This document shows positions 3,894-24,218 of a stretch of 32,000 bases of DNA, in pieces. Position 1 is the first letter of the stretch; each line of letters begins with the position of its first letter. Source of the stretch: Geotalea daltonii FRC-32 (GTDB lineage: Bacteria; Desulfobacterota; Desulfuromonadia; Geobacterales; Geobacteraceae); the NCBI RefSeq assembly GCF_000022265.1, contig NC_011979.1, positions 2,700,001 through 2,732,000 of the forward strand, written 5' to 3'. The translations under genes and the position numbers were made by a program. Below the pieces are notes generated by a model, which had not been told where the DNA came from, ran no database searches, and saw nothing but the letters and a program-made list of their open reading frames with translations.

Positions 3894-3922
3894 TTCATGG
3901 AAAGAGAAAAGGAGCAGAAACA

Positions 3923-7387: not shown

Positions 7388-7389
7388 CA

Positions 7390-8715
7390 ATGAGTCAAGC
7401 AAAAGTTGTCGAACTTTATCCCGATATTGCCGAAGCGCCGCGGTATTCCTGTGCCCTTGGCGGAGCTTATGTAACCGCACTTGCAGTCACCCATGCGGCT
7501 CCCATTCTTCATTCGGGTGCCGGATGCGGCCTTGGCCAGCAGTTCGGCCAGAACTATGCCGGCGGCATGAATGCCGCAGGCCGCCATGGCAACACAAGCA
7601 CTCCCTGCTCCTGCCTGGTGGAAGAGCATGTGGTATTCGGTGGAGAGGAGAAACTGCGCGACCTGATTGCATCGACCCTCAAGGTTGTCAAGGCTGACCT
7701 GTTCGCCGTAATTTCCGGCTGTGTTCCTTCCCTCATTGGTGACGATGTCGCGGCAGTGGTGAAAGAATTCAAAGGGCAAACGAATATAATTCATGTGCAA
7801 ACTGCCGGTTTTCTGGGCAATTCCTATCTGGGCTATGAACATTTCTTCGAGGCGGTAGTGGACCAGTTGCTGGCGCCGCTCCCGAAGCAGAAGAAACTTG
7901 TCAATATTTTCGGCATAGTGCCCAGCCAGCATATTCAGTGGAAGGGTCATCTGAGGGTTTTAAAGGCGCTGCTTGGAAAAATCGGCGTAGAGGCCAACAT
8001 CATTTTTACGGAAAAGGACGGTCTTGCGGCCCTGAAAAAGATCCCGGCTGCTGAATTGAACCTTGTCTTTTCACCATGGCTCGGGCTCAAGGTCGTTGAA
8101 AAATTGAAGGAAAAGTTTGAAACCCCATATGAGGTGATTCCTTTTGTGCCGGTAGGACCCCAGGACACTACCAGCTTCCTCAGGCAGATAGGTGAGCTGC
8201 TTCATATCCCGAAGAAGACGATTGAGGCGGTCGTGAAACCAGAGGAATGGGATGCCTACAATACCGCTGAATATTTCGGCGATCTTCTGGTAGTCGGCCT
8301 TCCCAATGCCTATTTCGGTGTGATTGCCGACAGCGGCACGGCCATCGGGCTGACCCGCTACGGCACCAATGAAATCGGTTTGCTTCCGGAGTTGGTGATT
8401 GTCAGCGATAATCCGCCTGAAGATTCGAGGGAGAATATTACTCGATTATTGACTGAGGGGCTGGCCAGCAGTATCAAACCCAAGGTCATTTTTGAGACAG
8501 ATAGTCACAAGATCAAGCTCATCCTGCAAAAGCACACCCTGCAGCTTCTGCTGGGTAGCTCGCTTGAAAAGCATCTGCCAAAGGGAGATGCCGGGTTTTT
8601 AAGCGTATCGTTTCCAACGTTCGACCGGATAGTTCTCGACCGGAGCTACGCCGGTTACCGGGGGGGGCTGAACTTTATTGAAGACGTGGGCGCACAGTTC
8701 TGCGGACCGTTGTAA
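7390..8715 (+). CDS. NifK-like subunit of nitrogenase-like enzyme, copy 1
   Basis: It starts 2 nt after the D1 stop. Blocks YSCALGGAY, HSGAGCG and ISGCVPSLIGDD correspond to the three NifK P-cluster cysteines. Confidence 0.85.
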   Translation: MSQAKVVELYPDIAEAPRYSCALGGAYVTALAVTHAAPILHSGAGCGLGQQFGQNYAGGMNAAGRHGNTSTPCSCLVEEHVVFGGEEKLRDLIASTLKVVKADLFAVISGCVPSLIGDDVAAVVKEFKGQTNIIHVQTAGFLGNSYLGYEHFFEAVVDQLLAPLPKQKKLVNIFGIVPSQHIQWKGHLRVLKALLGKIGVEANIIFTEKDGLAALKKIPAAELNLVFSPWLGLKVVEKLKEKFETPYEVIPFVPVGPQDTTSFLRQIGELLHIPKKTIEAVVKPEEWDAYNTAEYFGDLLVVGLPNAYFGVIADSGTAIGLTRYGTNEIGLLPELVIVSDNPPEDSRENITRLLTEGLASSIKPKVIFETDSHKIKLILQKHTLQLLLGSSLEKHLPKGDAGFLSVSFPTFDRIVLDRSYAGYRGGLNFIEDVGAQFCGPL

Positions 8716-8779: not shown

Positions 8780-8837
8780 TGCTAACCAGAGATCTGGAGG
8801 CCGGTTATGCCTGATAAGGGCTACCGGCCTTTTTTTT
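8780..8837 (+). terminator. Hairpin module copy C: intrinsic terminator after the NifK-like gene
   Basis: TGCTAACCAGAGATCTGGAGGCC (small CCAG-agat-CTGG hairpin), then stem GGCCGGT (8799-8805) / ACCGGCC (8823-8829), then T8 (8830-8837). Confidence 0.7.
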
Positions 8838-8885
8838 AGGCGGCACCGGATCGCCGGACAGGTCGCCGGTGAAGGAGGGGAAACT

Positions 8886-11216
8886 TTGATACGGAAAATT
8901 GCAGAGAAAATCATCAGGTACAGGGTACAGGTCCTTCTGGTTATTGTGGCCTTGACCATATTCTTTGCCTGGCATCTTAAGGATATCAAGATTGCTTTCG
9001 GCGGTGGTGATATCGTTCCTCCCAACCATCCTTATGTAAAGTTGACTGAGAGGATGGTGGAGAAGTACGGCGGCGAGCATCTTGTGGAGATTGCCATCCA
9101 GGTAAAGCAGGGGGATGTTCTCGATCCGGTGAATCTGGCCAAGGTTTACAGGATCGACCAGAAACTGCGTGAAATGCAGGGAGTGGTTACCTCGAAGATT
9201 ATCTCGGTCGCATCCCGCAAGTTCTCGCGGGTTAACTTCGCCTATGACGAACTTGGATATTCCACCCTCCACTTCGAAAAGTATCAGGACCTTGTCCGGA
9301 AGATCAACGACGGAGACAGCAAGGAGGCTACTGCGTTCAGGGAAGAGGTGCTGAACAATGACATGATCTCCGGTACCATTGTGTCCCCCGACCGAAAGAG
9401 GACGCTCATTCTGGCCGGTTTCAGGTATGAAGAGGATTACCGGTACATATTCGAGACGTTACAGAAGATAGTAAACGAAGAAAAGGATGCAAACACAGAA
9501 TTTTTCCTGGCCGGGCGGCCGATCATGCTCGGTTATATTGACTCGGCATTCAGGGGAATTCTGGTCGTCTTCGCCATTGCCGTTCTGGTGATGGTGGTAA
9601 CCCTCTATCTGGACTTCCGGACCATCCGTGGCGTCCTTCTCCCTCTCTCTTCAGGTCTGATCGGCGTTGTCTGGGGACTCGGTTTCATGTCCCTCCTCGG
9701 GCACAGGATAGATGTCCTTGGGGTGACCATACCCTTCTTGCTGGTTGCACTGGCCCACGGTCATTCAGTCCAAATTCTCTCGCGGTACTACTATGAGTAT
9801 GCCAACGGCCGCAATCGGGAGGAAGCGGCAGTAGAGTCGATGATCGGCCTCTTGAAACCTATGACCACCTCTATTTTTGCCGATGCAGTGGGTCTGTTCG
9901 TCCTGATACTGATGCCTTTCCGAAGTATCCAGTCCATGGCGCTGGTGGGGACTGCAGGCATCGTGGCTATCTGCGTCGGCTGCTTTGTCTTGATACCGGT
10001 ATCCCTTGCACTACTCCCCCCCATGAAACAATCTTCAGTCAATCGTGAAGAGAGCTGGTTCGGGCCGATCTTCGAACGTTTGGCTAAATTTTCCCTTGGT
10101 AAGGGCAAAGTGCCGATCCTCGCTCTTACCGGTGTAGTGCTGGTAATTGCACTTGTGGGTGCTTTCAAGGTACGGGTCGGCGAACTACAGTCCGGTTCGC
10201 CCGATTTCTGGCCGAATGCCCCCTACAACAAGGCAGAGAAGGTCGTTGAGCAGATGACCGGCGGGAACCTCTATTGGATAAACATAGAGGGTGACCGCAC
10301 CGGCGCTCTTTACGATGCAAAGGTGATCAGTGACATCAACGCCCTTCAGCGACACCTGGGTGAGATGCCTGAGGTGGGTTACTCCATATCCTATGTGGAC
10401 GCCCTGAAAAAAGTAAATGCAGCAATGCATGAGAATGATCCGCGCTGGGAGATCCTTCCGAACGATACTGCTTCGGCGGGGGAACTGATTGGAATGATCG
10501 GGGGAAGCGAGGGGTACGACGAAAGCAAGGACATGTTCACCAAGGACTACAAGTCAGGCACCATCGCGGTTTTTCTCAAGGACCGCAAGCCGGAAACACT
10601 GAAAAACGTCATTTCCGGCACCTGTGACTTCCTGAAGAAAAATCAGGCGAGCGACATACGCTTCGAACTCCCTGGCGGAACAGCGGGCATCTATTCGGCA
10701 ATCAACGAGGAGATTGAGAAAAACGAGTTCCTTAGCGTCGTCATCGTCGTTGTGGCGTGTCTGATTCTTACCGTTCTTGCCTTCAAGTCATGGCTTGCCG
10801 CTCTCATCATCTTTGTACCCCTGCTTATCGGCAAGGCGATCACCATGGCCTTCATGGGTTATGGAGGCATTGGCTTCTTCATCTATACCTTGCCGGTTGT
10901 AACCCTCGGTTTCGGGCTGGGAATCGATTTCTCCCTCTACATTCTGGCCAGGCTTAAGGAAGAAATCTCTGAATCCGGTGATTTTGTCACGGGATACATC
11001 AAGGCGCTCGGCACTTCGGGGCGTGCCGTGCTCTTTACCGGTCTGACCATGACCGGCGGCCTGCTAACCCTTTGTCTGTCCGAGATGCGTTTCCAGGCGA
11101 TCCTCGGTTCCATGCTGAGCGTGGTGGTAATGGCCAACACGATCATCGCGCTACTGTTTTTCCCGGTTTTACTATCGGTCATCAAACCTAAATTCTTGTT
11201 TCAAAGAGGGGAATAA
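8886..11216 (+). CDS. RND-superfamily (MMPL/HpnN-like) inner-membrane permease
   Basis: 776 aa. TTG start preceded by GAAGGAGGGG (8871-8880, 5-nt spacing). Two blocks of about 6 hydrophobic helices each follow a large soluble loop, which is the RND/MMPL topology. No adaptor or OMF gene is adjacent. Confidence 0.8.
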   Translation: MIRKIAEKIIRYRVQVLLVIVALTIFFAWHLKDIKIAFGGGDIVPPNHPYVKLTERMVEKYGGEHLVEIAIQVKQGDVLDPVNLAKVYRIDQKLREMQGVVTSKIISVASRKFSRVNFAYDELGYSTLHFEKYQDLVRKINDGDSKEATAFREEVLNNDMISGTIVSPDRKRTLILAGFRYEEDYRYIFETLQKIVNEEKDANTEFFLAGRPIMLGYIDSAFRGILVVFAIAVLVMVVTLYLDFRTIRGVLLPLSSGLIGVVWGLGFMSLLGHRIDVLGVTIPFLLVALAHGHSVQILSRYYYEYANGRNREEAAVESMIGLLKPMTTSIFADAVGLFVLILMPFRSIQSMALVGTAGIVAICVGCFVLIPVSLALLPPMKQSSVNREESWFGPIFERLAKFSLGKGKVPILALTGVVLVIALVGAFKVRVGELQSGSPDFWPNAPYNKAEKVVEQMTGGNLYWINIEGDRTGALYDAKVISDINALQRHLGEMPEVGYSISYVDALKKVNAAMHENDPRWEILPNDTASAGELIGMIGGSEGYDESKDMFTKDYKSGTIAVFLKDRKPETLKNVISGTCDFLKKNQASDIRFELPGGTAGIYSAINEEIEKNEFLSVVIVVVACLILTVLAFKSWLAALIIFVPLLIGKAITMAFMGYGGIGFFIYTLPVVTLGFGLGIDFSLYILARLKEEISESGDFVTGYIKALGTSGRAVLFTGLTMTGGLLTLCLSEMRFQAILGSMLSVVVMANTIIALLFFPVLLSVIKPKFLFQRGE

Positions 11217-11254
11217 CCCCTTCTGCATGCAATCTAAAAGAAGGAGAGTACGGT

Positions 11255-12967
11255 ATGAATTTCAAACTGAAGAAGCTGGTCCCCTTGCTGGCATTGCTGG
11301 TGCTGGTGTCGAGCAGCATCAACGCCTGGTCCGCGGACGATAATGCGTCCGGGCAGGAAGCCACCGCTAACACCACCTCCACTGCCGAAACAACTGCGCC
11401 GGAAAATGCCGCTGGTGAAAGTGGTGCCATTGCCACTACCGCTTCCACTTCTGAAACAGCAGCGCCAGAAAATGCCGCCGGTGAAAATGACACCGTCGCT
11501 GCCACCGCTTCGGAACCGGGCAACGCCGCGGATACTGGGGCGGTGGAGACCCTGCAGGAGCCATTCGACCCGTTCAATGTGATCGTGTACAAGCCACTCT
11601 GGGCTCTTACCTCCGCGATCGGCGATTTCAACCCCATCGGTAAGCACGTTTCAGCTCCCCTTGAGGAGTCAGTCCCGGGGCTACGCGTAAAGGGTTTCAT
11701 CAACAGCATAACGCAGATCAACACTACCTCCACCGATCACAATACGGGCCTTGGGGGAAGAAACAAGGACTGGAGGCTGCAGAAGCAAGAGTTCCGCACC
11801 CAGCTCGAACTCAAATACCAGGCAAATGAGAACATCGAATTCGTCAACGTTAACAATTTCCAGTATGACGGCGCCTACGACTTTCAGGACAGCGACGGCC
11901 TCTACACGGATGGTTCCTCCAACCAGAAATACTATTCCCAGTTCAAACGGATCGTTCGCGAGGCCTATGTCCGCGGTAACTATGGAAACGTCAACTTCAC
12001 CCTTGGCAAGCAGATCGTCAACTGGGGCAAGATGGATGGTAAGGTCATCGATTTCGTCAATGCTGCCGACGGCCGTGACGTTGTAGATTTCCATATCGGT
12101 GATTACGAGTGGCGGGCCATCGGCCAATGGATGGCAAACGTATCGTTGCGACCAACCGAGAACATAACTACCACCTTTCTGTGGAACCCTGATTTCCAAC
12201 CCAATGTGGGGCCTGCGGGAGGTTCGCCGTGGTGGTTTCCTTTCGCTCAATCGCCCGTTTCCAGCGCCCAGCGACCTCCCGAGAGAAATCCTTCCGGTTT
12301 TGACCGGCTCGCGGATAGCGAAGGCGGGGTGCGAGTGGATACGACCATCGGCGCCTTGTCATTGAGTGGAATTTATTACAACGGATTTGATCGTGACGCG
12401 GTTTTCAACACATCAGATAACACTCTCCATCACACCCGCCTCAACCGCTATGGCTACGCGCTCGACTACGGAACCAGTATCTTCGGACAGCGGCTGATCA
12501 TCCGTTCGGAAGCACTCTATTCCCATGGTAAGGCATTCAGTACTTCGGATCCTTCGGCACCTGGCGGGATCGTAAAGAAAGACCAGCTCAAACTTGCCGT
12601 CGCCTTCGAGACCTCCGTGGGCTCGGACGAAAACAAGATCGACATCCTTTATCAGCCGATCTGGACCCGTCAGCTGGGATGGGATAGTCGCACCGGCGCC
12701 AAACTCAACGACCTCCTCCATGTCGTAAACCTGAGCCATTCCGTGCGCAAGACGAACGACAGGCTGAAACTGAGCACTACCGGGTACATTTCGGGGGGAT
12801 CAGGCTATGACGGCCTCAGCTACAACGTCTCGGCAGGATGGAAATTCAATGATTACCTCAAGGCAACGCTGGCCTATAACGATTTCGTCGGCAAAGACGA
12901 CGATATCCCCTGGGGTGCATATAGAAAATGGAAGAACGTGACGCTGGACGTCAAGTACGAGTTCTAA
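11255..12967 (+). CDS. Outer-membrane beta-barrel protein, DUF1302-like
   Basis: Signal peptide (LLALLVLVSSSINA/WS), Thr/Ala/Glu-rich linker, then alternating beta-strand-like sequence ending in the OMP signature ...DVKYEF with a C-terminal Phe. The DUF1302 assignment comes from overall pattern and gene neighbourhood, not from a search. Confidence 0.6.
   Translation: MNFKLKKLVPLLALLVLVSSSINAWSADDNASGQEATANTTSTAETTAPENAAGESGAIATTASTSETAAPENAAGENDTVAATASEPGNAADTGAVETLQEPFDPFNVIVYKPLWALTSAIGDFNPIGKHVSAPLEESVPGLRVKGFINSITQINTTSTDHNTGLGGRNKDWRLQKQEFRTQLELKYQANENIEFVNVNNFQYDGAYDFQDSDGLYTDGSSNQKYYSQFKRIVREAYVRGNYGNVNFTLGKQIVNWGKMDGKVIDFVNAADGRDVVDFHIGDYEWRAIGQWMANVSLRPTENITTTFLWNPDFQPNVGPAGGSPWWFPFAQSPVSSAQRPPERNPSGFDRLADSEGGVRVDTTIGALSLSGIYYNGFDRDAVFNTSDNTLHHTRLNRYGYALDYGTSIFGQRLIIRSEALYSHGKAFSTSDPSAPGGIVKKDQLKLAVAFETSVGSDENKIDILYQPIWTRQLGWDSRTGAKLNDLLHVVNLSHSVRKTNDRLKLSTTGYISGGSGYDGLSYNVSAGWKFNDYLKATLAYNDFVGKDDDIPWGAYRKWKNVTLDVKYEF
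11372..11500 (+). repeat. In-frame tandem duplication (~21 aa x2) in the linker of the DUF1302-like protein
   Basis: TTSTAETTAPENAAGESGAIA followed by TTASTSETAAPENAAGENDTVA. The nucleotide units are similar but not identical. Confidence 0.6.
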
Positions 12968-13024
12968 AAGAAAGCAACCCAGTGCACAAATGGAAATCGG
13001 ACCAACAAAAGAAGGAGATGCGAC

Positions 13025-13996
13025 ATGAAGATCGCAGATGTTGAAATGAAGACCCATCAGTTGAGGAAACCCGGTGCCCTTATCCACAGAATGGGGATTT
13101 CTCTGGTGATGCTGACAGTCGTCTCCATGCTTTTCGCCTGCTCAGGAAAAGGGGGAGAGAAGGTCAGTGCGTCGACGTGGAAAACTTATCAACTGCCCTT
13201 TAACCATGTGGTCTTCGATCTGAAGCAGACAGGAGAGAAGGATGGGTGGGCGGTTGGAGAGAGAGGGCTTATACTTCGGTTCGACGGCACGAAATGGGAG
13301 CAAGTCGAATCCCCGGTGGCTGTCCCCCTCTTTGCCATTGCCTTCCCTGAATCTGACCGCAGATGGGCAGTCGGGGCCGATGGGACGATTCTGGAAGGAA
13401 ATAGCGATGGTTGGAAGGAGGTTCAAAAGCCGGACAAGTGGCACCTCATGTCGGTTGCTTTCCCATCGCCGGCAGACGGATGGGCTGTCGGAGAGAGAGG
13501 TTCCATTGTTCACTATGACGGCAAGGAATGGAAAAAGGTTGAGTCACCAAAAAAAGTGGCCCTGAACCGAGTCGTATTCAACAACCCCAACGATGGATGG
13601 GCCGTGGGCAATCAGGGGGTGATCCTCCATTACGACGGCAAAGGATGGAAGGAGATTTCATCTTCCACTGACCGGACGCTGTACGGGATAGCATTCCGGA
13701 ACTCGAATGACGCCTGGGCGGTTGGAGAGAAGGGCACCATTCTTCATTATGACGGCAAGTCCTGGTCGAAAGCCGAAAGCCCGGTCGAACGAACCTTCCT
13801 CAATGTGGCCGTTTCCAATGGAAAGGATGCATATATCGTCGGGCGTGGCGGAGAACTGCTTTCCCTGCATGAAGGCAAGTGGACACAGGGCGCCGATTCC
13901 CTAACCAGAAAGACCCTGTATGCCATTGATATTCCGCCGGACGGGAAACCGTGGGTTGGGGCAACCACCCGCGATATCTTCAAAAAACAACTTTAA
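13025..13996 (+). CDS. Ycf48/BNR-like beta-propeller lipoprotein
   Basis: Lipobox MLFAC/SG. About 6-7 repeats of a ~47-aa unit (DGWAVGERGxILHYDGKxWxxVESP...), typical of photosystem-II-assembly-factor-like (Ycf48/Hcf136) propellers. Confidence 0.7.
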   Translation: MKIADVEMKTHQLRKPGALIHRMGISLVMLTVVSMLFACSGKGGEKVSASTWKTYQLPFNHVVFDLKQTGEKDGWAVGERGLILRFDGTKWEQVESPVAVPLFAIAFPESDRRWAVGADGTILEGNSDGWKEVQKPDKWHLMSVAFPSPADGWAVGERGSIVHYDGKEWKKVESPKKVALNRVVFNNPNDGWAVGNQGVILHYDGKGWKEISSSTDRTLYGIAFRNSNDAWAVGEKGTILHYDGKSWSKAESPVERTFLNVAVSNGKDAYIVGRGGELLSLHEGKWTQGADSLTRKTLYAIDIPPDGKPWVGATTRDIFKKQL

Positions 13997-14052
13997 GCTT
14001 TATCTGCTGAAATCATGCGGAAATTCATAAACCGTAGCGAAAGGAGAAAGAA

Positions 14053-15498
14053 ATGAAGAATCAGAAAATGAAGGGCGTGGTCGCGCTTGCCACCTTGGCT
14101 GCTATTGCAGCCACAGACCTATCGGTCGTGGCCCGGTTCGGTATCGCCAAGGAAAATGTTGATTGGGGTAAGGTAGCATGGACGCCGGCAAAATCTACTT
14201 CACCCTGGAAAGAGTGGAACTGGAACCCGAAGAAGGAAGGGCGGTCCTGGAAATATGTGGAGGAACTGTCGCAGGCAGAAAAGGATTACTGGCAGATCGA
14301 CGGGCGCTGGTCCCACGAGATCCCCAGGGACAAGGAGTATCCCAAATTGCCGGAGGAGAGATATCCGTTCAAGGCCCCATACAGTGGGGAGGAACTTAGC
14401 GCTCTTGGGGAAGCCGGGGGCGGGGGTACCGTTATGTGCGGCCTGCAGGCCCATAGTGGATACCACATTTCCCGGACCAAAGACCGGAACGGAGTTATCA
14501 GCAAATCAGACACGATCTGCAATACGATCAGGCACTACAAGACCTTTGCCGAACAACTCTACAAGTTCAAGCCTGGGCAGGAGACCGGCGCCTACCTCGT
14601 TGTCGTGGCCAATCCGCCCGAGTCCGCAGGCACCGTCTCGCTTTCAAAATTCTACAAGGATGGCCCCGGTGTTTCCAAGCTTGAAGACCGTTGGGCATAT
14701 CTGCCGTCGCTACGGCGTGTTCGCAGGATCTCCGGCGCCAGCGGCTCGGACTATATCCCCGGTTCGGTCGCTACCTATGATGACGTATTCCTTCGGGATT
14801 TCTGGAAATACGACTCGAAAATCATCGGTGTGGACATTCTCTATCAGGCCGTTAACAGCAAAAAGCCTTACGGACCCATTGCGGGGCCATATCGCGCCGA
14901 TGGCGGCATAGAGACCTATGTGGTTTTAAGCAAACCTGTAAAGAATGGGTACTATCTCAGTCAGTGGATCAGCTGGCATGAGAAAAAAACCGGTCATATC
15001 ATTCGTCAAGAACAATGGGACCGCAAGGGTAACTTTAAGAAGGTTTCGGAAAAAGGTCTTTCCGGGCAGGTCTTATACTTTAATAAACTCATCTACCCTT
15101 GGTCGGAAGGGTTCAAGGGCGGGCTGACCGAGAGCGGCGCCGAGCGACGGGCGATTTTGCACGGCGGAGGACCTGATCAGGTATGGGACGTGGAGCAGGA
15201 CGTGCAGACCTATACTATTCCCGACACTCCTGACAAAAAGATCTCCTATGAGAAGTTCGGCAACCTGGATGCCTATGCCGGCAAGGAGACATGGAAACAG
15301 CTGTTCCAGCCGCAAAGGATCGAGAATCCATTCGTGAAGCCGGTACCTGTGGTGAAATTCGAGGCAACGGATTTCCCTCCCACCCCTCCTCTCTATCGAG
15401 ATAAGTTTTCAAAGTTCCGCAAGATCTCGCTTCCTGCCGAGATCCTGCAAAAGATCAAGAAGGATGAACAGAGCAAGCGGGGACTTTTTAAATCTTAA
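14053..15498 (+). CDS. DUF1329-like periplasmic/outer-membrane-associated protein (LolA-like fold family)
   Basis: Signal peptide present. Block WAYLPSLRRVRRISGASGSDYIPGSVATYDDVF matches the DUF1329 core I recall (..PalRRvRR...tyDD..). AAAGGAGAAAG RBS upstream. Confidence 0.65.
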   Translation: MKNQKMKGVVALATLAAIAATDLSVVARFGIAKENVDWGKVAWTPAKSTSPWKEWNWNPKKEGRSWKYVEELSQAEKDYWQIDGRWSHEIPRDKEYPKLPEERYPFKAPYSGEELSALGEAGGGGTVMCGLQAHSGYHISRTKDRNGVISKSDTICNTIRHYKTFAEQLYKFKPGQETGAYLVVVANPPESAGTVSLSKFYKDGPGVSKLEDRWAYLPSLRRVRRISGASGSDYIPGSVATYDDVFLRDFWKYDSKIIGVDILYQAVNSKKPYGPIAGPYRADGGIETYVVLSKPVKNGYYLSQWISWHEKKTGHIIRQEQWDRKGNFKKVSEKGLSGQVLYFNKLIYPWSEGFKGGLTESGAERRAILHGGGPDQVWDVEQDVQTYTIPDTPDKKISYEKFGNLDAYAGKETWKQLFQPQRIENPFVKPVPVVKFEATDFPPTPPLYRDKFSKFRKISLPAEILQKIKKDEQSKRGLFKS

Positions 15499-15567: not shown

Positions 15568-17283
15568 ATGCATGATAATTTGAGTGAGCTGCCCATAACG
15601 GATGATACACCCATAAACCTTAAGGAAAACACTTGCCCGACCCGTGAACAACGGTTGTCGGTCGCCATAAACGCCTATTACGGTACCATGAGCGATCTGG
15701 TCAAGGGGACTCGTGAAAAGAGCCTCGTTCAGCCGGACCGCTGTTTTGAACAGTCTGGGAACTGCCTTCTGGCTCTTAATGCCCAACGGCTCATCAGCAT
15801 TCGCGATTCCGTGCTCCTGTTTCACTCACCCATAGGGTGTGCAGCAGGCCAGCACAGCAGTCACGAACTCTTTCAGCATATTCCCATCGAGCAGGGGCGA
15901 CCTGCCGATCTGGGTTTTTTCCATGCGGTCAGCACCAATCTGACTGACAGCGATGTGGTTTTCGGCGGCGGCGAGAAGCTGGTCGCCGCCCTCAAGGAAG
16001 CTGACCGGCGCTATTCGCCCCGGGCCATTTTTGTCGTCACCTCCTGTGCCTCCGGTATCATCGGCGACGACCTGGAAGGGGCTGTCAATGAGGCCCAGCC
16101 GCACGTTAAGGCAAAGATCGTCCCCTGTCACACCGAAGGATTCCGTTCCCGTGTAACGCAGACCGGCTACGATGCCTTCTGGCACGGGGTTCTCAAGTAT
16201 CTGGTGCGAAAGGACCTGCCGAGAGAGAAGGATCTGGTGAACGTTACCAACATGTTCTCCTACACCTGGATGGACAAGATCGAAATAAACCGGCTCCTCA
16301 CCAAGCTGGGGCTCAGGGTCAATTTCATACCCGAATTCGCCTCGGTGGAAGATCTGGAGCGGATGGGGGCTGCAGCGGTGACCGCGCCGATCTGCCCGAC
16401 ATTCGCCGACTATCTGATGCGGGGGCTGGATGAGCACTTCGGCGTTCCCTATTTCAACGACGTAATCCCCTTCGGCATCAAAAAGACCGACGAGTGGCTC
16501 CGCAGGATCGCCAGCTATACGGGCAAGGAAAAGGAGGTGGAGGAGCTCATCAAGGAGGAGCACGCCACCTACATCCCGAAGGTGGACAAAATCCGGCAGG
16601 GGTTGGAGGACATCCGCAGGCGGATGGTGGCAAAAGGGACCAAGAAGGAGGGGGAGAAGCTGACCGCCATCGGTGCGGTCGGCCAGGGCCGCGTCATCGG
16701 GCATGCCGTATTCCTGGAAGAGCTGGGTTTGGAAGTCGCAGCTGCTTGCGCCATTGATTACGATTCCCTCATCGCCGATTCCTTTGATTCCCTGGTCAAG
16801 GAAGTGGGTGATTTCATCGTTCTCGTCTCAACTTTCCAGGCTGCTGACTACGCTAATCTCTTTGCCAGGCTCAAGCCGGACCTTTCCCTCCAGGCCCCCT
16901 TCAAGGGGGGTGTAATCAAGACCGCCCACACCATTGGAACCATCCATTGGCTCAGGGGCCACAATCATCCTTCACAGGTTCAAGCCGGTTATGCCGGCGC
17001 CGTCGGATACGGGGATATGGTCCTGCGGAGTTTCCAGAACACTGCACTGACCAAGCTGCTTGCCGACTTCGATGACTCCCCCTACAAGGATTGGTGGTAC
17101 AAAGCCGATCCGCTGCATTATGTGAAGGGAAGGGACGAGATCTTCAAGTCCAACCCTCTAACAATACCGGATGATCCGGATCACGGTCACGAACATGATG
17201 ATCACCGTCATCACGACCACGGCCACACCCACAGCCATGGTCACGACCACGGTCAGGATCATGCTCACGGCCACAAGCATTAA
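15568..17283 (+). CDS. NifD-like subunit, copy 2, with C-terminal His-rich tail
   Basis: Paralog of the 5873 gene; long blocks are identical by eye (LGLRVNFIPEF, AAVTAP.CP, TDEWLR.IA.YTGKEKEVE). Ligand-type blocks: SGNCLLAL, HSPIGCAAG, TSCASGIIGDDLEG, TAPICPTF, TIHWLRGH. The tail is HGHEHDDHRHHDHGHTHSHGHDHGQDHAHGHKH. Confidence 0.85.
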   Translation: MHDNLSELPITDDTPINLKENTCPTREQRLSVAINAYYGTMSDLVKGTREKSLVQPDRCFEQSGNCLLALNAQRLISIRDSVLLFHSPIGCAAGQHSSHELFQHIPIEQGRPADLGFFHAVSTNLTDSDVVFGGGEKLVAALKEADRRYSPRAIFVVTSCASGIIGDDLEGAVNEAQPHVKAKIVPCHTEGFRSRVTQTGYDAFWHGVLKYLVRKDLPREKDLVNVTNMFSYTWMDKIEINRLLTKLGLRVNFIPEFASVEDLERMGAAAVTAPICPTFADYLMRGLDEHFGVPYFNDVIPFGIKKTDEWLRRIASYTGKEKEVEELIKEEHATYIPKVDKIRQGLEDIRRRMVAKGTKKEGEKLTAIGAVGQGRVIGHAVFLEELGLEVAAACAIDYDSLIADSFDSLVKEVGDFIVLVSTFQAADYANLFARLKPDLSLQAPFKGGVIKTAHTIGTIHWLRGHNHPSQVQAGYAGAVGYGDMVLRSFQNTALTKLLADFDDSPYKDWWYKADPLHYVKGRDEIFKSNPLTIPDDPDHGHEHDDHRHHDHGHTHSHGHDHGQDHAHGHKH

Positions 17284-17309: not shown

Positions 17310-18683
17310 ATGACTGCGACAAATGTACTGAAATTTACCGATGAAGACGAGCGCATTGCCGCTCTTGATCCCAAGGACCGTCCCTTGCAGGAGACACCTC
17401 GCCATACGTGCGCCTTGGGCGGCGCGTTTGTGGCAGCTACCGCCGTGTCAGGGGTGATGCCGATCCTCCATTCGGGAGGAGGATGCGGCTGGTCCAATTT
17501 CTTCGGCTTTATCGGCGCCAGCGGCGGCGGGCAGATCGGCGACGGCGGTGCATTGACTACCCCCTGTTCGACCCTGCTGGAAAAGCATGTGGTCTTCGGC
17601 GGTGAGGAAAGGCTGCGCGACCAGATCGCTTCGACCATGGAACTTATGAACGGGGACCTGTTCGTCACGGTGTCGGGTTGTATCCCGGCGCTTATCGGTG
17701 ACGATGTTGAAGGGGTCGTCTCCGAATTCAGGAAACCGGAATACCCTCCCATCATTAACGTCAAATCATCGGGATTCAACGGGACCTCCTACGATGGCTA
17801 CGACCTGTTCCTGGATGCGGTTATCGACCAGTATCTGGAAGAGCGACCGGTCCGGAAAGGCTTGGTAAACATCCTCGGTATCCAGCCCTGCCAGCACATA
17901 TTCTGGAAGGGAGACCTGGATCTTTTCAAGACCAACCTGGATGCCATCGGTCTGGAGACCAACCAGATCTTCGGCGGCAGATACGGTGTTGAAGGGCTGA
18001 AGAATATTCCGGCCGCCCAGTTGAACATTGTCCTCAGTCCCTGGCAGGGTTTGAAAGCCGCGGAAAAACTCAAGGAGAAATACGGCACCCCCTATATCGT
18101 CTATCCTGGGTTGCCCATGGGCCCCAAGGAAATGACCCGCTTTCTGCGTACGGTGGCCGAACATCTGGATGTGGAACAGGAGCGCCTGGATAAATGGATC
18201 AGGAAGCAGACAGAGATTGCCTACGACGACTTCAATCTGATTGCCACGGCTCTATATACCGGGTTTTGCAACGTTCACTTCGCGGTCGTCGCGGAATCGA
18301 ATATGGCCATCGGGTTGGTCAGGTACCTGACCAATGAATGCGGCCTGCTTCCCAGTGTGGTGGTCGTGACCGACAATCCCCCTGCAGAAGTGCGTGACCT
18401 CATCACCGACAGGCTCACCAATGGACTCGAAGGCATAATCGTTCCCGACGTCTACTTCGAGAACGATACCTACCTGATTCACAAGAGACTGACGAAATAC
18501 ACTTTCATGCTCCTTTTCGCCAGCTCCATGGAAAAGTACGCTGCCAGCAAGTACATGGCCGGCCATCACACGATTTCTTTTCCCGCCTTTGACCGGGTTA
18601 TCCTCAAGCGCACCTATGCCGGGTTCGGGGGAGGAAATATCCTCCTGGAAGACCTGTTCAGCAAATTCGCCAGGCCGTTCTAA
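17310..18683 (+). CDS. NifK-like subunit, copy 2
   Basis: Blocks HTCALGGAF, HSGGGCG and VSGCIPALIGDD parallel copy 1. AAAGGAGA RBS upstream. Confidence 0.85.
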   Translation: MTATNVLKFTDEDERIAALDPKDRPLQETPRHTCALGGAFVAATAVSGVMPILHSGGGCGWSNFFGFIGASGGGQIGDGGALTTPCSTLLEKHVVFGGEERLRDQIASTMELMNGDLFVTVSGCIPALIGDDVEGVVSEFRKPEYPPIINVKSSGFNGTSYDGYDLFLDAVIDQYLEERPVRKGLVNILGIQPCQHIFWKGDLDLFKTNLDAIGLETNQIFGGRYGVEGLKNIPAAQLNIVLSPWQGLKAAEKLKEKYGTPYIVYPGLPMGPKEMTRFLRTVAEHLDVEQERLDKWIRKQTEIAYDDFNLIATALYTGFCNVHFAVVAESNMAIGLVRYLTNECGLLPSVVVVTDNPPAEVRDLITDRLTNGLEGIIVPDVYFENDTYLIHKRLTKYTFMLLFASSMEKYAASKYMAGHHTISFPAFDRVILKRTYAGFGGGNILLEDLFSKFARPF

Positions 18684-18728
18684 GGTGCCCGGCATCAAAT
18701 CATGGAAAAAACCTATGGAGAGCCGATC

Positions 18729-19112
18729 ATGAGCTGGGTACGGGTTGCCGTCGCCTCGACGGACGGAATAGCAATCGACCAGTCACTACAGGAGGTCTCT
18801 TCCTTCAGCATTTATGATGTAGCTGTGGAGGGCCCCCGGTTCGTGGAAACACGCAAGGCAGCCGGGGCCTCTGCTTTGCCCGGCCCTGGCGGGGAGCCAA
18901 CCGGCCTGTCCATGGATGAATTTCTGGATATCATCTCCGATTGCTCACTCCTGGTTGTAAGGTCTTTGGGAGTTGAAGCCGGGGGGAAGATACAGATCGG
19001 GTGGCTGACCGTCTATGAGGCAGATATGCAGGTTGAAAAGGCATTGAAGAGGTTTTCCAGCAGTCCCCTGATCAAAAACTTGTTTGGGAATAAAGCAGAC
19101 CCAACCGATTGA
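18729..19112 (+). CDS. NifX/NafY/NifB-C-terminal-like cofactor-binding domain protein
   Basis: VRVAVASTDGIAIDQSLQEVSSFSIYDV..., then a central DC (IISDCSLLVV), then GVEAGGKI. This is the dinitrogenase Fe-Mo-cofactor-binding domain pattern. ATG 18729 has GGAGAG 6 nt upstream; the alternative start is ATG 18702. Confidence 0.7.
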   Translation: MSWVRVAVASTDGIAIDQSLQEVSSFSIYDVAVEGPRFVETRKAAGASALPGPGGEPTGLSMDEFLDIISDCSLLVVRSLGVEAGGKIQIGWLTVYEADMQVEKALKRFSSSPLIKNLFGNKADPTD

Positions 19113-19848: not shown

Positions 19849-20889
19849 ATGCCGGGATTCATGAACAAAGCCATCAGGATTGTAGCAATTGCCATTGCCC
19901 TGTCGTCAGTTGCGAGCTTGCTGGGGGCATGCAAGAAAGAGACTAAAGGGGCAACCGTCGGCGATGGGCTGTTCCCGATCAAAGCCATCACCAGGAAAGA
20001 CTGCTCACTTGCACCCTGGCTGGTGACCGAAAAACTCGGTTTCTTTGCACAGGAGGGGATCAGGATTGTCTACACCGGTGAAACACAGCCCGCTCTGGTC
20101 CTCCCTTCTGTATTGAAGGGGGATAACGACGTGGCCGGCGACCACCCCAACGCCCTGGCGGTGGCCAAAGCCGGAGGGGCGAAGATCACCGGTGTGGTGC
20201 GCAGCGGCATAGACCCTGCTCCAGACCTTAATCCGGAACTGCGCCACATGTTCTGGTACGTAAACCCTGAGAAATATCCCGATGTCAAATCCTTTGCGGA
20301 TTTGAAGAAGTTGCCGGGCAAACTCAAATTCTCCACCATCACCAACAACATCTGTTCGGACTTCCTGGCCAACAGGATCGCCGATAAAAACGGGATTCCG
20401 AGGGATAAATTCGAATGGGTGACGATGCCTGACGTTCAGGCGATCCAGGCACTGAAACAGGGGTTGGTGGACGTGGCCGGTGTACATCCACCCTTCTACA
20501 AGCCAATGGTAATTTCCGGAGCGCGCAAAATTTCGGATTCATTGGAAACAGGCCTGGGTCCCTCAGCAGGCGTTAGTTTTACCTATTTTCGGGACGATTT
20601 CATAGAGAAACACCCGGATGTGGTCCGTGGTTTCATCCGGGCCATGGGCCGGGGAGGGGCATGGATCAATGACCATCCCGAAATGGCCGCCAAATGGACT
20701 TCGGAGGCGATTGGGGTGCCTGTGACCGGCAACCATTATTACTCACCCAAAAATGACATCCTGGAGAGCGAGATCGAGCCATGGATTCAAGACCTGGAGG
20801 AGCATAAGGTGATCCCTCGCGGCAAAGTCAAGCCCTCTGACCTGGTGTCTCACCAGTTCGAGACGCACGAGGTTTACTCGTGGAAATAA
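19849..20889 (+). CDS. NMT1/SsuA/TauA-family ABC-transporter substrate-binding lipoprotein (orphan)
   Basis: ATG 19849 is preceded by AAGGAGG (19834-19840). Lipobox SLLGAC/KK. The body has the two-lobe SBP pattern of the NitT/TauT family. The ORF-track start at 19741 is rejected. No permease or ATPase gene is adjacent. Confidence 0.7.
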   Translation: MPGFMNKAIRIVAIAIALSSVASLLGACKKETKGATVGDGLFPIKAITRKDCSLAPWLVTEKLGFFAQEGIRIVYTGETQPALVLPSVLKGDNDVAGDHPNALAVAKAGGAKITGVVRSGIDPAPDLNPELRHMFWYVNPEKYPDVKSFADLKKLPGKLKFSTITNNICSDFLANRIADKNGIPRDKFEWVTMPDVQAIQALKQGLVDVAGVHPPFYKPMVISGARKISDSLETGLGPSAGVSFTYFRDDFIEKHPDVVRGFIRAMGRGGAWINDHPEMAAKWTSEAIGVPVTGNHYYSPKNDILESEIEPWIQDLEEHKVIPRGKVKPSDLVSHQFETHEVYSWK

Positions 20890-20931: not shown

Positions 20932-21243
20932 ATGGCATTGGAAGAAAAAGTTCGTGAGCTTATCGCAGTAGGCGCGTCTATCGCCGCAAACAACCCCCCG
21001 GAGGTGAAATATCATATCATTCGTGCCCGTGAGTTGGGGGCCGACGATGCGGCACTCAACGATGCAGTCGATATCGGGAAGCAGGTGCGCCGCGGTGCCG
21101 CATCAAAGACAGACGCCTTTGCCTTGAGTCTGGCAACGACCCCGGTGCAGCGGGAGAGGGGCGGCTGCCGCAAAGGTGGTGGCGGACGCGGAAACGGCCA
21201 GGGAGACGGCTGCGGATGCAATGGGCAGAAAGCGGAACAGTAG
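20932..21243 (+). CDS. Carboxymuconolactone-decarboxylase (CMD/AhpD-like) family small protein lacking the CxxC motif, with a Gly/Cys-rich tail
   Basis: ELIAVGASIAANNPPEVKYHI..ARELGADDAALNDAVDIGKQVRRGAASK fits the short CMD-domain pattern, but N and E occupy the usual Cys positions. The tail is GGCRKGGGGRGNGQGDGCGCNG. Confidence 0.6.
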   Translation: MALEEKVRELIAVGASIAANNPPEVKYHIIRARELGADDAALNDAVDIGKQVRRGAASKTDAFALSLATTPVQRERGGCRKGGGGRGNGQGDGCGCNGQKAEQ

Positions 21244-21292: not shown

Positions 21293-22069
21293 ATGCAGCC
21301 AACCGATGAAAGGATACGACAAGTGAAAGAGCCATATTTAGACCAGATTCGTACCGCTGTTCGTCAAAGATACGATGCGGTAGCGCGATCCCCCAGGCCG
21401 CTGTTTCAATACCCCACCGGCCGTGAGGGGATGCTGAAGTTGGGCTATGGGGAAGAGTTCATTGATTCGTTGCCGGCGTCGGTGGCGGAATCGTTCTGCG
21501 GTGTGGGTAATCCCTTACTGGCAGGAAAGATCCGGCCAGGGGAGACTGTACTTGATGTGGGGTGCGGGGCTGGAGTCGATATTATTCGTGCGGCCGGTTT
21601 GGCCGGTCCTGACGGCAAAGTTTACGGGGTGGACCTGACTTCTTCCATGGTAGAAAGAGCGGCAGATAACATCAAGAAGATGCAGATTGCCAATGCATGG
21701 GCGGAGGAGGGCGCTGCAGAGTCGCTGCCGTTTCCGGATAAAATCTTCGATGTCGTGACCTCCAACGGTGTGCTGAATCTCTCCCCCGAAAAGAGGGACT
21801 GGCTAGGGGAAATCCATCGCGTGCTCAAGCCTGGCGGCAGATTATACCTTGCAGATATGATTCTGGAGGATGGAATGGCAGGAGAGTCTCCAAACAACCT
21901 CGATGCCTGGTCTGCTTGAATTGGCGGCGCCATCCCCGGGCGGGATGTTGAAAGGCTTCTGTGGGAAACCGGGTTCCTGGACATAAAAAGTCTCGGCACC
22001 AGCGGCTTCAGGACTTCCCCGAAAACAATCGGAGCAGTATTCGGTGCAACTAGGGTCTGTCGGACTTAG
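21293..22069 (+). CDS. ArsM/UbiE-like SAM-dependent methyltransferase, candidate selenoprotein (in-frame TGA at 21917-21919 read as Sec)
   Basis: SAM motif VLDVGCGAGVD plus LKPGGRLYLADMI. The ORF track stops at TGA after ..LDAWSA. The same frame continues as IGGAIPGRDVERLLWETGFLDIK... to TAG 22067-22069. The TGA lies where ArsM-type enzymes have the conserved Cys of the W/Y-x-G-C-I-x-G-A block. The start is uncertain (ATG 21293, or GTG 21323 with a better RBS). Confidence 0.55.
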
Positions 22070-22215
22070 AATGAATCGGCTGCGAAAATGGCAAATCGGT
22101 CTGGATCTCCGTAAATTTTCGACAAATAGGTCCACTATTCGCTCTCAAATTTCCAAATATCCGTCCTCGATTTTCCATTCTCTCGCTTCGATCCCTAAGT
22201 CCGACAGACTCCTAG
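22050..22215. repeat. ~166-bp element bounded by 20-bp inverted repeats (MITE-like or long hairpin)
   Basis: CTAGGGTCTGTCGGACTTAG (22050-22069) versus CTAAGTCCGACAGACTCCTAG (22195-22215). This is a 15-bp perfect core plus a 5-bp extension with one bulged base, with an AT-richer interior. The left arm encodes the last residues and the stop of the methyltransferase. Confidence 0.45.
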
Positions 22216-22294
22216 AAATAGATTATGGTCTGGAAATTCATGGTCCTGGTTTTCTTACAGCCTTTCCGAATAAGGTGTTAGTGCCCATGAACTG

Positions 22295-22328
22295 CTCGAC
22301 CCTTCCACTTGAACGGGGAAGGGTCGAG
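22295..22328. terminator. 12-bp perfect hairpin between convergent transcription units (no U-tract)
   Basis: CTCGACCCTTCC (22295-22306) / GGAAGGGTCGAG (22317-22328), 10-nt loop. It lies 44 nt beyond the stop of the minus-strand gene. Confidence 0.35.
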
Positions 22329-22371
22329 GCAGCTAAAGGCGCATCAATGGTACGCGGGGCTGGTCCCATTC

Positions 22372-22824
22372 TCAGCTTTTCGAATCTCCCTCCGGCGTTA
22401 TCATGATTCGTCCATAGGTCCACGACCAGTATCTTTCAGCATAGTCAGGGAGGTGATAGCGATATTCCAGCCTGATGTTTCTGGCGTTCATGGACAGATT
22501 GCCGGGAAGCGTCAGGTTGAATTGTTGCGACTGGTCCAGGGCGAGGCTGGCGGGACCGATGAAAACCGCCTCATTTCCTGACGGTTTGCCGTTTTCATCA
22601 AGAACAACCGCGAAGAGCTGTAACTGATAAATCTTGTGGTGGAGGTTGTTCCTGGCTAACCCTTTGATGGCGAGGTTGCCGGGTACCTGCTTGATTTCCA
22701 AGGAAAACGACACATCACGATTCTGATCTCCTGCCACGGTGGACGCCGTGGCGATGTTTGGTGTACAGACGGCAAATGCAGGGATCATGATAAAAAGTGC
22801 GATGAGAGTTTTTTTCCAGTTCAT
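22372..22824 (-). CDS. Hypothetical secreted protein or lipoprotein (150 aa)
   Basis: AAAGGAGA RBS on the minus strand. Signal peptide MNWKKTLIALFIMIPAFAVC. I recognise no family. Confidence 0.6.
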   Translation of the reverse strand: MNWKKTLIALFIMIPAFAVCTPNIATASTVAGDQNRDVSFSLEIKQVPGNLAIKGLARNNLHHKIYQLQLFAVVLDENGKPSGNEAVFIGPASLALDQSQQFNLTLPGNLSMNARNIRLEYRYHLPDYAERYWSWTYGRIMITPEGDSKS

Positions 22825-22954: not shown

Positions 22955-22982
22955 TGGTCTCCTGAACATTAAAAAAATTCTG

Positions 22983-23040
22983 TTGACCGGAAGGAATGGT
23001 TGCTGTATAAAAGAATAAAACTATAGATTAAGTAGTCTAA
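22983..23040 (+). promoter_or_regulatory. Sigma70-type promoter of the cbiM operon followed by operator-like half sites
   Basis: -35 TTGACC (22983-22988), 17-nt spacer, -10 TATAAA (23006-23011). ATAGATTAA (23023-23031) and TAGTCTAA (23033-23040) resemble operator arms but in an everted arrangement. Confidence 0.5.
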
Positions 23041-23041
23041 T

Positions 23042-23100
23042 TGCTGACCAGACAACTGGAGGCCAAAGATAGTGAATATCTTTGGCCTTTTTTTGTTTTT
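23042..23100 (+). terminator. Leader hairpin module copy B: small hairpin plus terminator-like stem and T-run, between promoter and cbiM
   Basis: TGCTGACCAGACAACTGGAGGCC (CCAG-acaa-CTGG). Stem GGCCAAAGATA (23061-23071) / TATCTTTGGCC (23077-23087) with a 5-nt loop, then T7-G-T5. The leader contains no ATG. Confidence 0.55.
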
Positions 23101-23138: not shown

Positions 23139-24167
23139 ATGCATATGGCTGATGCTTTGGTCTCACCCGCAGTGGGTGGGACAACATGGCTGGTAACGGC
23201 AGGAGCCATAGCCCATGCGGCCCGCAGGTTGGGTAGAGATGCTGACGAGCGAATCGTACCACTCATGGGGGCACTGGGAGCCTTTGTGTTCACGGTGCAG
23301 ATGATAAACTTTTCCATTCCCGGAACCGGTTCCAGTGGGCACTTGGTAGGTGGGGTTCTCCTTGCGGCACTTCTGGGCCCTCACGGCGCGTTTCTTGCCA
23401 TTGCGTCCATCCTGGTGGTGCAGGCCCTGGTTTTTGCCGACGGCGGCCTTTTGTCCCTTGGCTGTAATATTCTCAATCTGGGGTTTATCCCATCTTACCT
23501 GGCGTATCCCTTCATCTATAAAAGCATCGCTTACGGCTTTCCAGGACGGAGCAGGATTGCACTTGCGGCTGTTGCAGCCGCAGTGTTCAGCCTCGTGCTG
23601 GGGGCACTGGCAGTGGTAGTGGAAACGTCCCTATCCCAGGTGTCTGCGCTTCCATTCCTCCCCTTCATTGCCCTCATGCTCCCGGTCCATCTGGCAATCG
23701 GCGTCGTCGAAGGCATGGTGACGGCCGCGCTCCTCTCCTGGCTTCTGCAGGCCCGCCCCGACCTGATGCGTTCCGATCGTTTCCATACATCCTTCGGCCT
23801 ACCGCTTTCACGCCGGTTGCTGATGCCCGTTCTTGGCGCCACCATCATCATCGGCGGGGTCCTGTTCCGCCACGGGTCGGAACGTCCCGACGGGCTGGAA
23901 TGGGCTATGGCCAAGGTGGCCGGGCAAAAAGAACTGCAGGGGAAGGACGGGGACATGCACCGGGCCTTTGCCCGGATTCAGGAGAAGACAGCTCTCTTTC
24001 CCGGATACACAATCGGTAGCCATCCGGCCACAGGGCATGGAATTGGGGGGAATGGTGACACGGAGAAGAAAGGAGATGGGGCGGCAGGCGTTGTCGGTGG
24101 CGCCATAACCCTCATCGCCATCTTTTCCGTCGGTGTGATCGTTAACCGCCGCAGGTGCGACAGGTAA
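23139..24167 (+). CDS. cbiM: CbiM/NikM-family ECF transporter substrate-capture component fused to a C-terminal PDGLE domain
   Basis: The N-terminus MHMADALVSPAVGG fits the family, which needs an N-terminal Met-His. I therefore prefer ATG 23139 (9 nt after GGGAG) over ATG 23133. There are multiple TM helices, and the C-terminal ..SERPDGLEWAMAK.. is the PDGLE motif that replaces CbiN/NikN. Confidence 0.8.
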   Translation: MHMADALVSPAVGGTTWLVTAGAIAHAARRLGRDADERIVPLMGALGAFVFTVQMINFSIPGTGSSGHLVGGVLLAALLGPHGAFLAIASILVVQALVFADGGLLSLGCNILNLGFIPSYLAYPFIYKSIAYGFPGRSRIALAAVAAAVFSLVLGALAVVVETSLSQVSALPFLPFIALMLPVHLAIGVVEGMVTAALLSWLLQARPDLMRSDRFHTSFGLPLSRRLLMPVLGATIIIGGVLFRHGSERPDGLEWAMAKVAGQKELQGKDGDMHRAFARIQEKTALFPGYTIGSHPATGHGIGGNGDTEKKGDGAAGVVGGAITLIAIFSVGVIVNRRRCDR

Positions 24168-24218
24168 CCTTTCTGCCGGGCCGGCAGAGGCTCGACACCT
24201 TATGGGAGAATGACAGAC

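Follow-up and report, generated by a model that had tools for sequence, protein, structure and literature searches.

A Histidine-Rich, Metal-Binding-Type Tail on a Nitrogenase-Like D Subunit of Geotalea daltonii

The D2 subunit and its C-terminal tail

The window analyzed in this work is a stretch of 32,000 nucleotides from Geotalea daltonii FRC-32 (contig NC_011979.1, positions 2,700,001 to 2,732,000) that contains a cluster of nitrogenase-like genes, and the feature of interest is a histidine-rich tail at the C-terminus of one of the encoded proteins, D2. D2 (15568-17283, +) is a nitrogenase-like (Group IV) D subunit of 571 aa and matches PF00148 with an E value of 6.8e-69. The gene ends in a TAA stop codon at 17281-17283, which is followed by an AAGGAG ribosome-binding site and the ATG (17310) of K2. 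K2 (17310-18683, +; PF00148, E 6e-70) encodes the partner K subunit and is found after D2 in every orthologous locus, and a gene for a NifX/NafY-like cofactor-carrier domain protein (18702-19112, +; PF02579) lies downstream of K2 in all of these loci. The cluster also contains a paralogous pair, D1K1 (5873-8715, +), that has no tail; D1 and D2 are 46% identical.

The translation of D2 terminates in ...PDDPDHGHEHDDHRHHDHGHTHSHGHDHGQDHAHGHKH*, and the final 33 residues, HGHEHDDHRHHDHGHTHSHGHDHGQDHAHGHKH, include 16 His, as claimed in the original prediction, which was made from the sequence before this analysis. This His-rich core (17182-17280, +) has 12 overlapping H-x-H motifs and contains no Cys and no Met. 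The tail had been placed at 17173-17283; it does lie there, but the core begins at 17182 and the earlier start only adds D-P-D. The core is joined to the folded body of the protein by a linker of 18 residues, GRDEIFKSNPLTIPDDPD (17128-17181, +), with a G[KR]DEIFK[ST]NP motif that is common to the D2-clade orthologs. Given the 3.3% His in the body of D2, the probability of finding at least 16 His in 33 residues is ~1e-15, or ~7e-11 once it is corrected for all six-frame windows. A six-frame scan of the window with a threshold of 7 His in 30 residues revealed no second stretch as His-rich as the tail, and two out-of-frame stretches barely reach the threshold. The paralog D1 (5828/5873-7387) was said to have no such tail, and its translation agrees: the protein ends in ...WWFKRPNPVYLKEEGA*, that is, ...PVYLKEEGA.

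The His residues of the tail are encoded by a mixture of codons (11 CAC and 5 CAT). The only signal from Tandem Repeats Finder is a weak periodicity of 6 and 12 nt (67-68% matches), thus the tail DNA is a degenerate cryptic repeat and not a clean one, and the earlier view that the tail is no simple repeat artefact holds. The tail is read as part of D2 with no stop before the TAA, and the alternative frames of the same DNA would give Thr/Val-rich or Arg/Ser/Pro-rich peptides. In its composition, (H-x)n with Asp, Gly, Ser and Thr, the tail matches stretches already known to bind metals, which is also how it had first been described. In the AlphaFold2 (AF2) model the predicted local distance difference test score (pLDDT) has a mean of 55 over residues 521-530, is below 50 for all residues from 527 and is 30-37 across residues 527-571, and the tail is therefore predicted to be disordered.

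Absence of the tail from close orthologs would have counted against the original prediction, but the tail was found in all of the full-length D2-clade proteins down to 72% identity. The survey took in the 120 best homologs of D2. Among these, a His-rich C-terminal extension is present in 13 of the 13 proteins that are at least 68% identical to D2 (the full-length ones are at least 72% identical) and in none of the 102 D1-type proteins, which are 46-52% identical and come from methanogens, Firmicutes and other bacteria. The ortholog from G. toluenoxydans is 99% identical to D2. Additional members of the same 90% clusters also have the tail, the exceptions being two entries that are plainly frameshifted or truncated, and none of the full-length members of the clade, at 72-99% identity, has a tail cut by stop codons. 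When 1.84 billion representatives were searched exhaustively with HMMER, 95 family members were obtained at E <= 1e-30, and there was no His-rich stretch in any of the 149 other family representatives listed by this search.

The extensions of the orthologs are built in the same way. A conserved linker of ~15-20 residues (G[KR]DEIFK[ST]NP...) is followed by a core of 27-67 residues that has 39-52% His and 11-20 overlapping H-x-H motifs, with Asp, Gly, Ser, Thr and Glu as the filler residues. Met does not occur in the cores and Cys is nearly absent (there is one Cys in ortholog P0004). Composition and reading frame are kept across the clade, while sequence and length vary by in-frame indels. The tails of the window and of G. 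toluenoxydans differ by one in-frame indel of 12 nt, which fits slippage under selection for staying in the His frame.

Variations at the same C-terminal position are observed in the sister clades. The D subunits of Methanoperedenaceae, an archaeal sister clade, have a short Lys-rich end, and those of the Methanotrichaceae sister clade (P0015-P0017 and P0287-P0293) have a conserved G-C-G-x2-C-x4-C. In addition, a subset of the bacterial His tails (P0006, P0007, P0271, P0273 and P0274) finish with a conserved P-C-E-x8-R-x-A-C. Both of these Cys motifs are possible metal or cluster sites. Since Cys motifs and His tails occur at the same position, residues that can ligate metals appear to have been fitted there more than once in this lineage. 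As judged from the alignments, the pattern of conservation is explained better by selection on ligand residues than by drift. The D2 tail is real, is translated with the rest of the protein and is maintained by selection.

Two other explanations of the His codons were considered and rejected. A gene-calling or frameshift artefact is at odds with a frame that is open from the folded domain to the TAA and with the same architecture in orthologs from independent assemblies. A role as a histidine attenuator is not compatible with a run that stands at the end of a 571-codon gene, is followed by no terminator or antiterminator structure and is succeeded by an ordinary ribosome-binding site ahead of K2.

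The family of D2 and the genes around it

Nitrogenase-component models are the only Pfam and NCBIfam models that match D2, and PF00148 is the sole Pfam match. The closest solved structures are two structures of MarD from Rhodospirillum rubrum (PDB 9fmg and 9d9u; sequence E 2e-68). The AF2 model of D2 (mean pLDDT 81.6; predicted template modelling score 0.83) superimposes on 9fmg_A with a target-normalized template modelling score of 0.89 at 31% identity, and MarD and NifD are its best matches in the PDB. The published metal ligands of MarD (PMC12552129) were transferred to D2 through a D2-MarD sequence alignment. The P-cluster cysteines Cys66, Cys91 and Cys160 of D2 correspond to Cys66, Cys91 and Cys158 of MarD, and the cofactor cysteine Cys276 corresponds to Cys270. 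In D2 the position aligned with the cofactor ligand His429 of MarD, which is located in the MarD-specific Loop I, is a Lys (PFKGG). A different His, His460 within the motif IH[WYFAS]LRG (IHWLRG in D2; about nt 16945-16947), is invariant in the D1/D2 clade. All five residues, Cys66, Cys91, Cys160, Cys276 and His460, are invariant in an alignment of 40 homologs, and D2 keeps every Fe-S cluster ligand of its family. His460 may occupy the canonical NifD-type ligand position, and if so the cofactor environment would be unlike that of Mar; in a profile search against the PDB that included a comparison with NifD His442, the NifD alignments end short of the His460 region.

These comparisons identify D2 as a Group IV nitrogenase-like D subunit that is a relative of Mar but not a Mar ortholog. 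D2 belongs to a clade that is separate from Mar and that also includes methanogen and Firmicute proteins of unknown function. Membership of Group IV is in agreement with the adjacent K subunit and with the NifH-type reductase and NifB-type radical SAM enzyme encoded in the locus. Several Mar-like paralogs within one genome are already known. Like the MarDK system (Group IV-C), D2 has the three P-cluster cysteines as well as the cofactor Cys, and its locus also encodes NifH-like, NifB-like and sulfur-assimilation proteins. However, MarD has no His-rich tail. Mar reduces methylthio-alkanes, namely dimethyl sulfide, ethyl methyl sulfide and methylthioethanol, to methanethiol, whereas for D2 only a sulfur-assimilation context is seen. 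It was shown only recently that nitrogenase-like enzymes with no part in nitrogen fixation contain clusters of the nitrogenase type and can cleave C-S bonds, and most Group IV clades, the D2 clade included, have no known substrate.

The tail itself resembles those of other proteins. HypB, UreE, SlyD, CooJ and Hpn have long, disordered, terminal His runs with Asp, Gly and Ser, as does D2. No sequence relationship was found between the D2 tail and the His-rich segments of these five proteins, and the domains that define HypB, UreE, SlyD and CooJ (G3E GTPase, UreE fold, FKBP/IF domain and CooJ coiled coil) were not found in D2 by Pfam or NCBIfam. The metallochaperones carry the His run on an accessory protein, whereas in D2 it is part of a catalytic subunit, that of an Fe-S enzyme. 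Built-in His-rich extensions are known for the N-terminal domain of Haemophilus Cu,Zn-superoxide dismutase and for the C-terminal tail of the Helicobacter pylori GroES homolog HspA. In these two proteins, as in D2, a lineage-restricted terminal extension is fused to a working protein, but the metals they capture are known (Cu/Zn and Ni, respectively), whereas D2K2 has no known non-Fe metal site. A 2026 survey of nitrogenase-like enzymes in Chemical Reviews, the Mar structure paper and a 2026 preprint on Mar paralogs do not mention a His-rich tail or Geobacter/Geotalea enzymes, and a full-text literature search returned no His-rich C-terminal tail on a nitrogenase-type subunit. Both parts are of known kinds, and what is new with respect to this literature is a clade-wide His-rich tail of the metal-binding type on a nitrogenase-like catalytic subunit.

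Upstream of D1K1 the locus encodes a NifB-like protein (2803-3678; 321 bits) and NifH (3743-4801; 408 bits, above the nifH cut-off). In most relatives a third DK pair, D3K3 (~488 and 430 aa), directly follows the NifX-like gene (L005 14054-16812, L008 13574-16338, L010 13554-16243 and L011 13014-15766). The window has no D3K3 and has D1K1 upstream instead. That D1K1 is simply D3K3 at another position was rejected, as D3 is ~32% identical to D1 and likewise to D2 and stands in a clade of its own.

The gene directly upstream of D2 belongs to an AmeABCD-like HAE3-RND (resistance-nodulation-division) envelope cassette (8886-15498, +), which by Pfam and NCBIfam consists of an MMPL protein, a DUF1302-like outer-membrane protein, a BNR/Ycf48-like protein and a DUF1329/LolA-like protein. 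The same four genes lie directly upstream of a His-tailed D2 in 6 of 6 independent loci, those of the window, G. toluenoxydans, a Geobacteraceae metagenome-assembled genome and three metagenomic lineages. HAE3-RND systems of the AmeABCD type have been described for hydrophobic compounds (PMC6394551). The locus contains genes related to sulfur; they encode a CymR-like Rrf2 regulator, the sulfate-binding protein Sbp (573 bits), an OscA/DUF2292-like protein (1561-1725), CysK and an SsuA-like binding protein. Several of the products are poor in sulfur: Cys and Met together make up 0.3% of Sbp, 0.4% of the outer-membrane protein and 0.8% of the DUF1329 protein, and 0-1.3% of the products of 505-1512, 1561-1725, 4837-5763, 11255-12967 and 14053-15498. 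A composition poor in Cys and Met is expected of sulfate-starvation-induced proteins, and from its gene content the locus looks like a sulfur-starvation regulon.

Two regions of the window share a promoter and leader. The region upstream of the nifB-like gene (2640-2790, +) has a promoter, an operator-like site that is a perfect palindrome (TCTATCTAAAAGATAGA, 2688-2704) and a leader with a hairpin and U-tract. The related region upstream of cbiM (22965-23100, +) contains GGAGGCCAAAGATA...TCTTTGGCC and then a T-run. Both have a TTGAC -35 element and an AT-rich operator-like element, and the GGAGGCCAARGATA...TCTTTGGCC hairpin with its T-run occurs only at these two sites in the window, thus the relationship between the two regions was correctly noted in the original prediction. 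The leader pattern, GGACAA..GGAGGCCAA..TTGGCC with a T-run, is also found in L002, L006 and L005. In L005, a Geobacteraceae relative with 86% D2 identity, it is at 20100-20140, immediately 5' of cusB. The leader matches no Rfam family (the top match, SdsR_RyeB, scores 28.8 bits, below its threshold of 38). It could be an attenuator or a small RNA that has so far gone unrecognized and belongs to a regulon responding to sulfur or metal.

The genes behind the second leader encode metal transporters. The first is a cbiM(+PDGLE)-cbiQ-cbiO energy-coupling factor (ECF) transporter (23139-25795, +; PF01891 with E 7e-58, PF02361 and PF00005), which has the hallmarks of CbiMNQO/NikMNQO systems: an S-component with Met-His (the CbiM N-terminus is M-N-M-H-M-A-D), CbiQ and CbiO. 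It is followed by cusB, which has an HMBD domain, and cusA (25826-30519, +; TIGR00914, 1086 bits), a heavy-metal efflux RND pump of the Cu(I)/Ag(I) type. The CusA of the window scores 937 bits to E. coli CusA versus 580 to ZneA, and the Met573/Met623/Met672 triad for Cu(I)/Ag(I) is intact in the alignment. With CusCFBA of E. coli the system thus shares a CusA-like pump and a CusB-like adaptor with a heavy-metal-binding domain; it differs in that the window has no cusC or cusF, only cusB, cusA and a small cytochrome-c-like open reading frame (ORF), and in that the pump lies behind a leader common to the nifB-like gene. In the G. daltonii/toluenoxydans lineage the importer and the Cu(I)-type exporter are seemingly in one transcription unit, an odd arrangement.

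The cbiMQO genes are present at the D2 locus only in the G. daltonii/toluenoxydans lineage and are absent at the orthologous tail-bearing loci of four other lineages (L005, L007/L008, L009 and L010). Since they are restricted in this way and the leader directly precedes cusB in L005, cbiMQO seems to have been inserted recently, in between the leader and cusBA. The tail occurs in lineages that do not have cbiMQO, and it is therefore older than the importer at this locus. The cusBA genes neighbor a His-tailed D2 in 4 of 5 lineages, and in two lineages besides L005 they come after the cluster with no cbiMQO. The recurrent metal-related neighbor of the His-tailed D2, as far as gene neighborhoods tell, is a CusA-type Cu(I)/Ag(I) pump and not a Ni/Co importer. 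An independent D1-type locus encodes a heavy-metal P-type ATPase with HMA and E1-E2 ATPase domains (L015, 4836-7118). There are hints that nitrogenase-like sulfur loci repeatedly recruit exporters of thiophilic metals.

Possible roles of the tail

Why would an Fe-S enzyme carry such a tail? Any proposal starts from what was observed directly: the tail exists, is predicted to be disordered, is conserved in composition across the clade and has recurrent genomic associations. On chemical grounds, it is close to certain that a sequence of this kind binds metals in vitro. We tentatively prefer, at somewhat under an even chance, the proposal that the tail serves to buffer or trap metal, at several sites and with no sulfur ligands, beside an Fe-S-rich enzyme. 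In chemical terms the tail is a multi-site binder of transition-metal ions of the borderline and soft classes (Cu, Zn, Ni and Co, with Fe(II) bound weakly), and it would act locally on an enzyme with large and vulnerable Fe-S clusters. D2K2 would be made together with the Cu(I)-type CusBA exporter, by way of the shared leader, during sulfur starvation, when thiol-based metal buffering would be scarce. The tail would then keep stray thiophilic metal off the clusters or their assembly. It might also hold metal that is freed from, or brought with, hydrophobic organosulfur substrates of the adjacent AmeABCD-like system. The proposal draws on the His-rich composition kept across the clade and its absence elsewhere in the family, on the Cys motifs at the same C-terminal position, on the CusBA neighborhood and its leader, on the P-type ATPase of L015 and on the sulfur-starvation setting of the locus. 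Metal binding in vivo, the identity of the metal and the protective role are what we infer from the observations above.

Several points weigh against a metal buffer or trap. Stretches of (His-X)n with Asp classically prefer Ni(II), Zn(II) and Co(II) over Cu(I), and disordered tails of low complexity may survive even if they do little or nothing. All co-occurrences of the tail with the AmeABCD cassette and CusBA fall inside one clade, and the association may therefore be due to shared ancestry and not to function. The tail-bearing L010 has neither CusBA nor cbiMQO within 10 kb. A tail-only search of a collection of 5.8 billion proteins gave three word-sharing candidates and no match, and so provides no anchor to a characterized family.

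Taken with the Cu(I) pump that recurs near it and with the leader, the tail suggests that sulfur starvation, the deployment of an Fe-S enzyme and thiophilic-metal stress are managed jointly in Geobacterales. The connection to which it points, of metal stress with the anaerobic scavenging of sulfur, is so far unexplored. A metal phenotype can be predicted from the tail and tested cheaply, and the tail would permit tag-free purification of the native enzyme by immobilized metal affinity chromatography.

It is unlikely, though deserving of some weight, that the tail has no metal function at all and is a tolerated, slippage-prone, low-complexity extension, or that it acts only physically, for example as a solubility aid, a spacer, a pH buffer or a docking element for the membrane or the AmeABCD-like system. 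The weak 6/12-nt periodicity and the in-frame indels between close species suggest replication slippage, the tail varies in sequence and length, and AF2 gives it no structure. However, no full-length ortholog, whatever the identity of its body to that of D2, has lost the His frame or the high His content or has been cut short by a stop codon, even though the other frames would give peptides of quite different composition, and sister clades have Cys motifs at the same site. If the tail proves to be dispensable, it would be a mere curiosity of low-complexity evolution.

A role of the tail as a self-chaperone for Fe-S maturation is rather less probable. It would concentrate Fe(II), or dock the NifB-like protein, the NifX-like protein or NifH during insertion of the P- or L-cluster. 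In its favor, D2K2 would require 32 Fe per heterotetramer if it is built like Mar (PMC12552129), the gene for the NifX-like carrier immediately follows K2 in all of the loci, and the Cys motif of Methanotrichaceae at the same site could bind Fe or a cluster. However, peptides of His and Asp bind Fe(II) with low affinity, and the maturation of D1K1 and of the rest of the family proceeds with no tail of this kind.

The original prediction suggested storage or delivery of a divalent metal and took the Ni/Co-type ECF importer as raising the possibility that a metal other than Fe, or one besides Fe, is used. In the Ni/Co form of this idea, the tail would store or deliver Ni or Co from a co-regulated CbiMQO and D2K2 would need a non-Fe metal, for example as a heterometal of the cofactor, which we regard as improbable. 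The composition of the tail is like that of the Ni/Co/Zn-binding tails of HypB, UreE, SlyD and CooJ, the promoter and leader are common to cbiM and the nifB-like gene, and the invariant His460 of the D1/D2 clade is unlike the His429 position of MarD, so that the D1/D2 cofactor site differs from that of Mar. However, the link between importer and tail was not supported by comparison of the loci, as the tail predates a lineage-specific importer and the same leader stands directly before cusB in L005. The specificity of the importer does not point to Ni or Co either. CbiM is below every NCBIfam CbiM equivalog cut-off (at best 125 bits versus 219) and Rfam finds no cobalamin or NiCo riboswitch in the window, thus no Co or Ni specificity can be assigned to CbiM through a riboswitch or an equivalog match, NikR sites not having been searched. 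Among the genes annotated in the window by Pfam and NCBIfam there is none of the homocitrate-synthase or NifEN type, D2 retains the Fe-S cluster ligands of its family, and Mar, the sole solved relative, has all-iron clusters (PMC12552129). The observation behind the original prediction is confirmed, and its interpretation is partly supported.

More generally, it is very doubtful that D2K2 depends on a non-iron metal caught by its own tail, either in a heterometal cofactor of the nitrogenase type or because its substrates are metal-organosulfur compounds (metal thiolates or thioethers). In the latter version, the tail would catch a toxic metal freed by C-S cleavage, which the co-regulated CusBA pump would then expel. 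If this were true, anaerobic sulfur scavenging by nitrogenase-like enzymes would be tied to metal handling. Least probable of all is a regulatory metal sensor, in which metal would switch the activity or oligomerization of D2K2 or block docking of NifH and so shut the enzyme down under metal stress, since a flexible multi-site tail in a metal-efflux neighborhood is its sole support, the variable length and sequence speak against a precise allosteric device, and the literature searched has no precedent for it in the nitrogenase family.

Other features of the window

The remaining observations concern individual genes. The OscA/DUF2292-like ORF falls under the 80-aa cut-off used for ORFs. The NifH ORF includes an N-terminal extension of 59 residues without homology, and the true start is probably an ATG at ~3920. 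An additional hairpin with a T-run, beginning CTGGAGGCC, is located at 8780-8840 between K1 and the MMPL gene and looks like an intra-cluster terminator or attenuator. The gene for the DUF1302-like outer-membrane protein has a 66-nt tandem duplication (11360-11491) in a region encoding a Thr/Ala/Glu-rich N-terminal segment, and the repeats spaced by 117 nt in the BNR/Ycf48-like gene (13241-13759) correspond to the propeller blades of its product.

Two further genes lie between the NifX-like gene and the second leader. An AhpD/CMD-family protein (20932-21243) does not have the usual CxxC at the expected place, where the sequence is IAANNPPE, and it has a Gly/Cys-rich C-terminal tail, GGCRKGGGGRGNGQGDGCGCNGQ. 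The ORF of an ArsM-like methyltransferase (21293-22069, +) has a TGA at 21917-21919, after which the frame stays open for 50 more codons. When the TGA is read as Cys or selenocysteine, the score against the NCBIfam model 'arsenite methyltransferase/AhpD domain selenoprotein' is 286 bits in place of 235, and the match reaches model position 248 instead of 201. From this match the ArsM-like protein is probably a selenoprotein, and the ORF at 22044-22406 is probably spurious.

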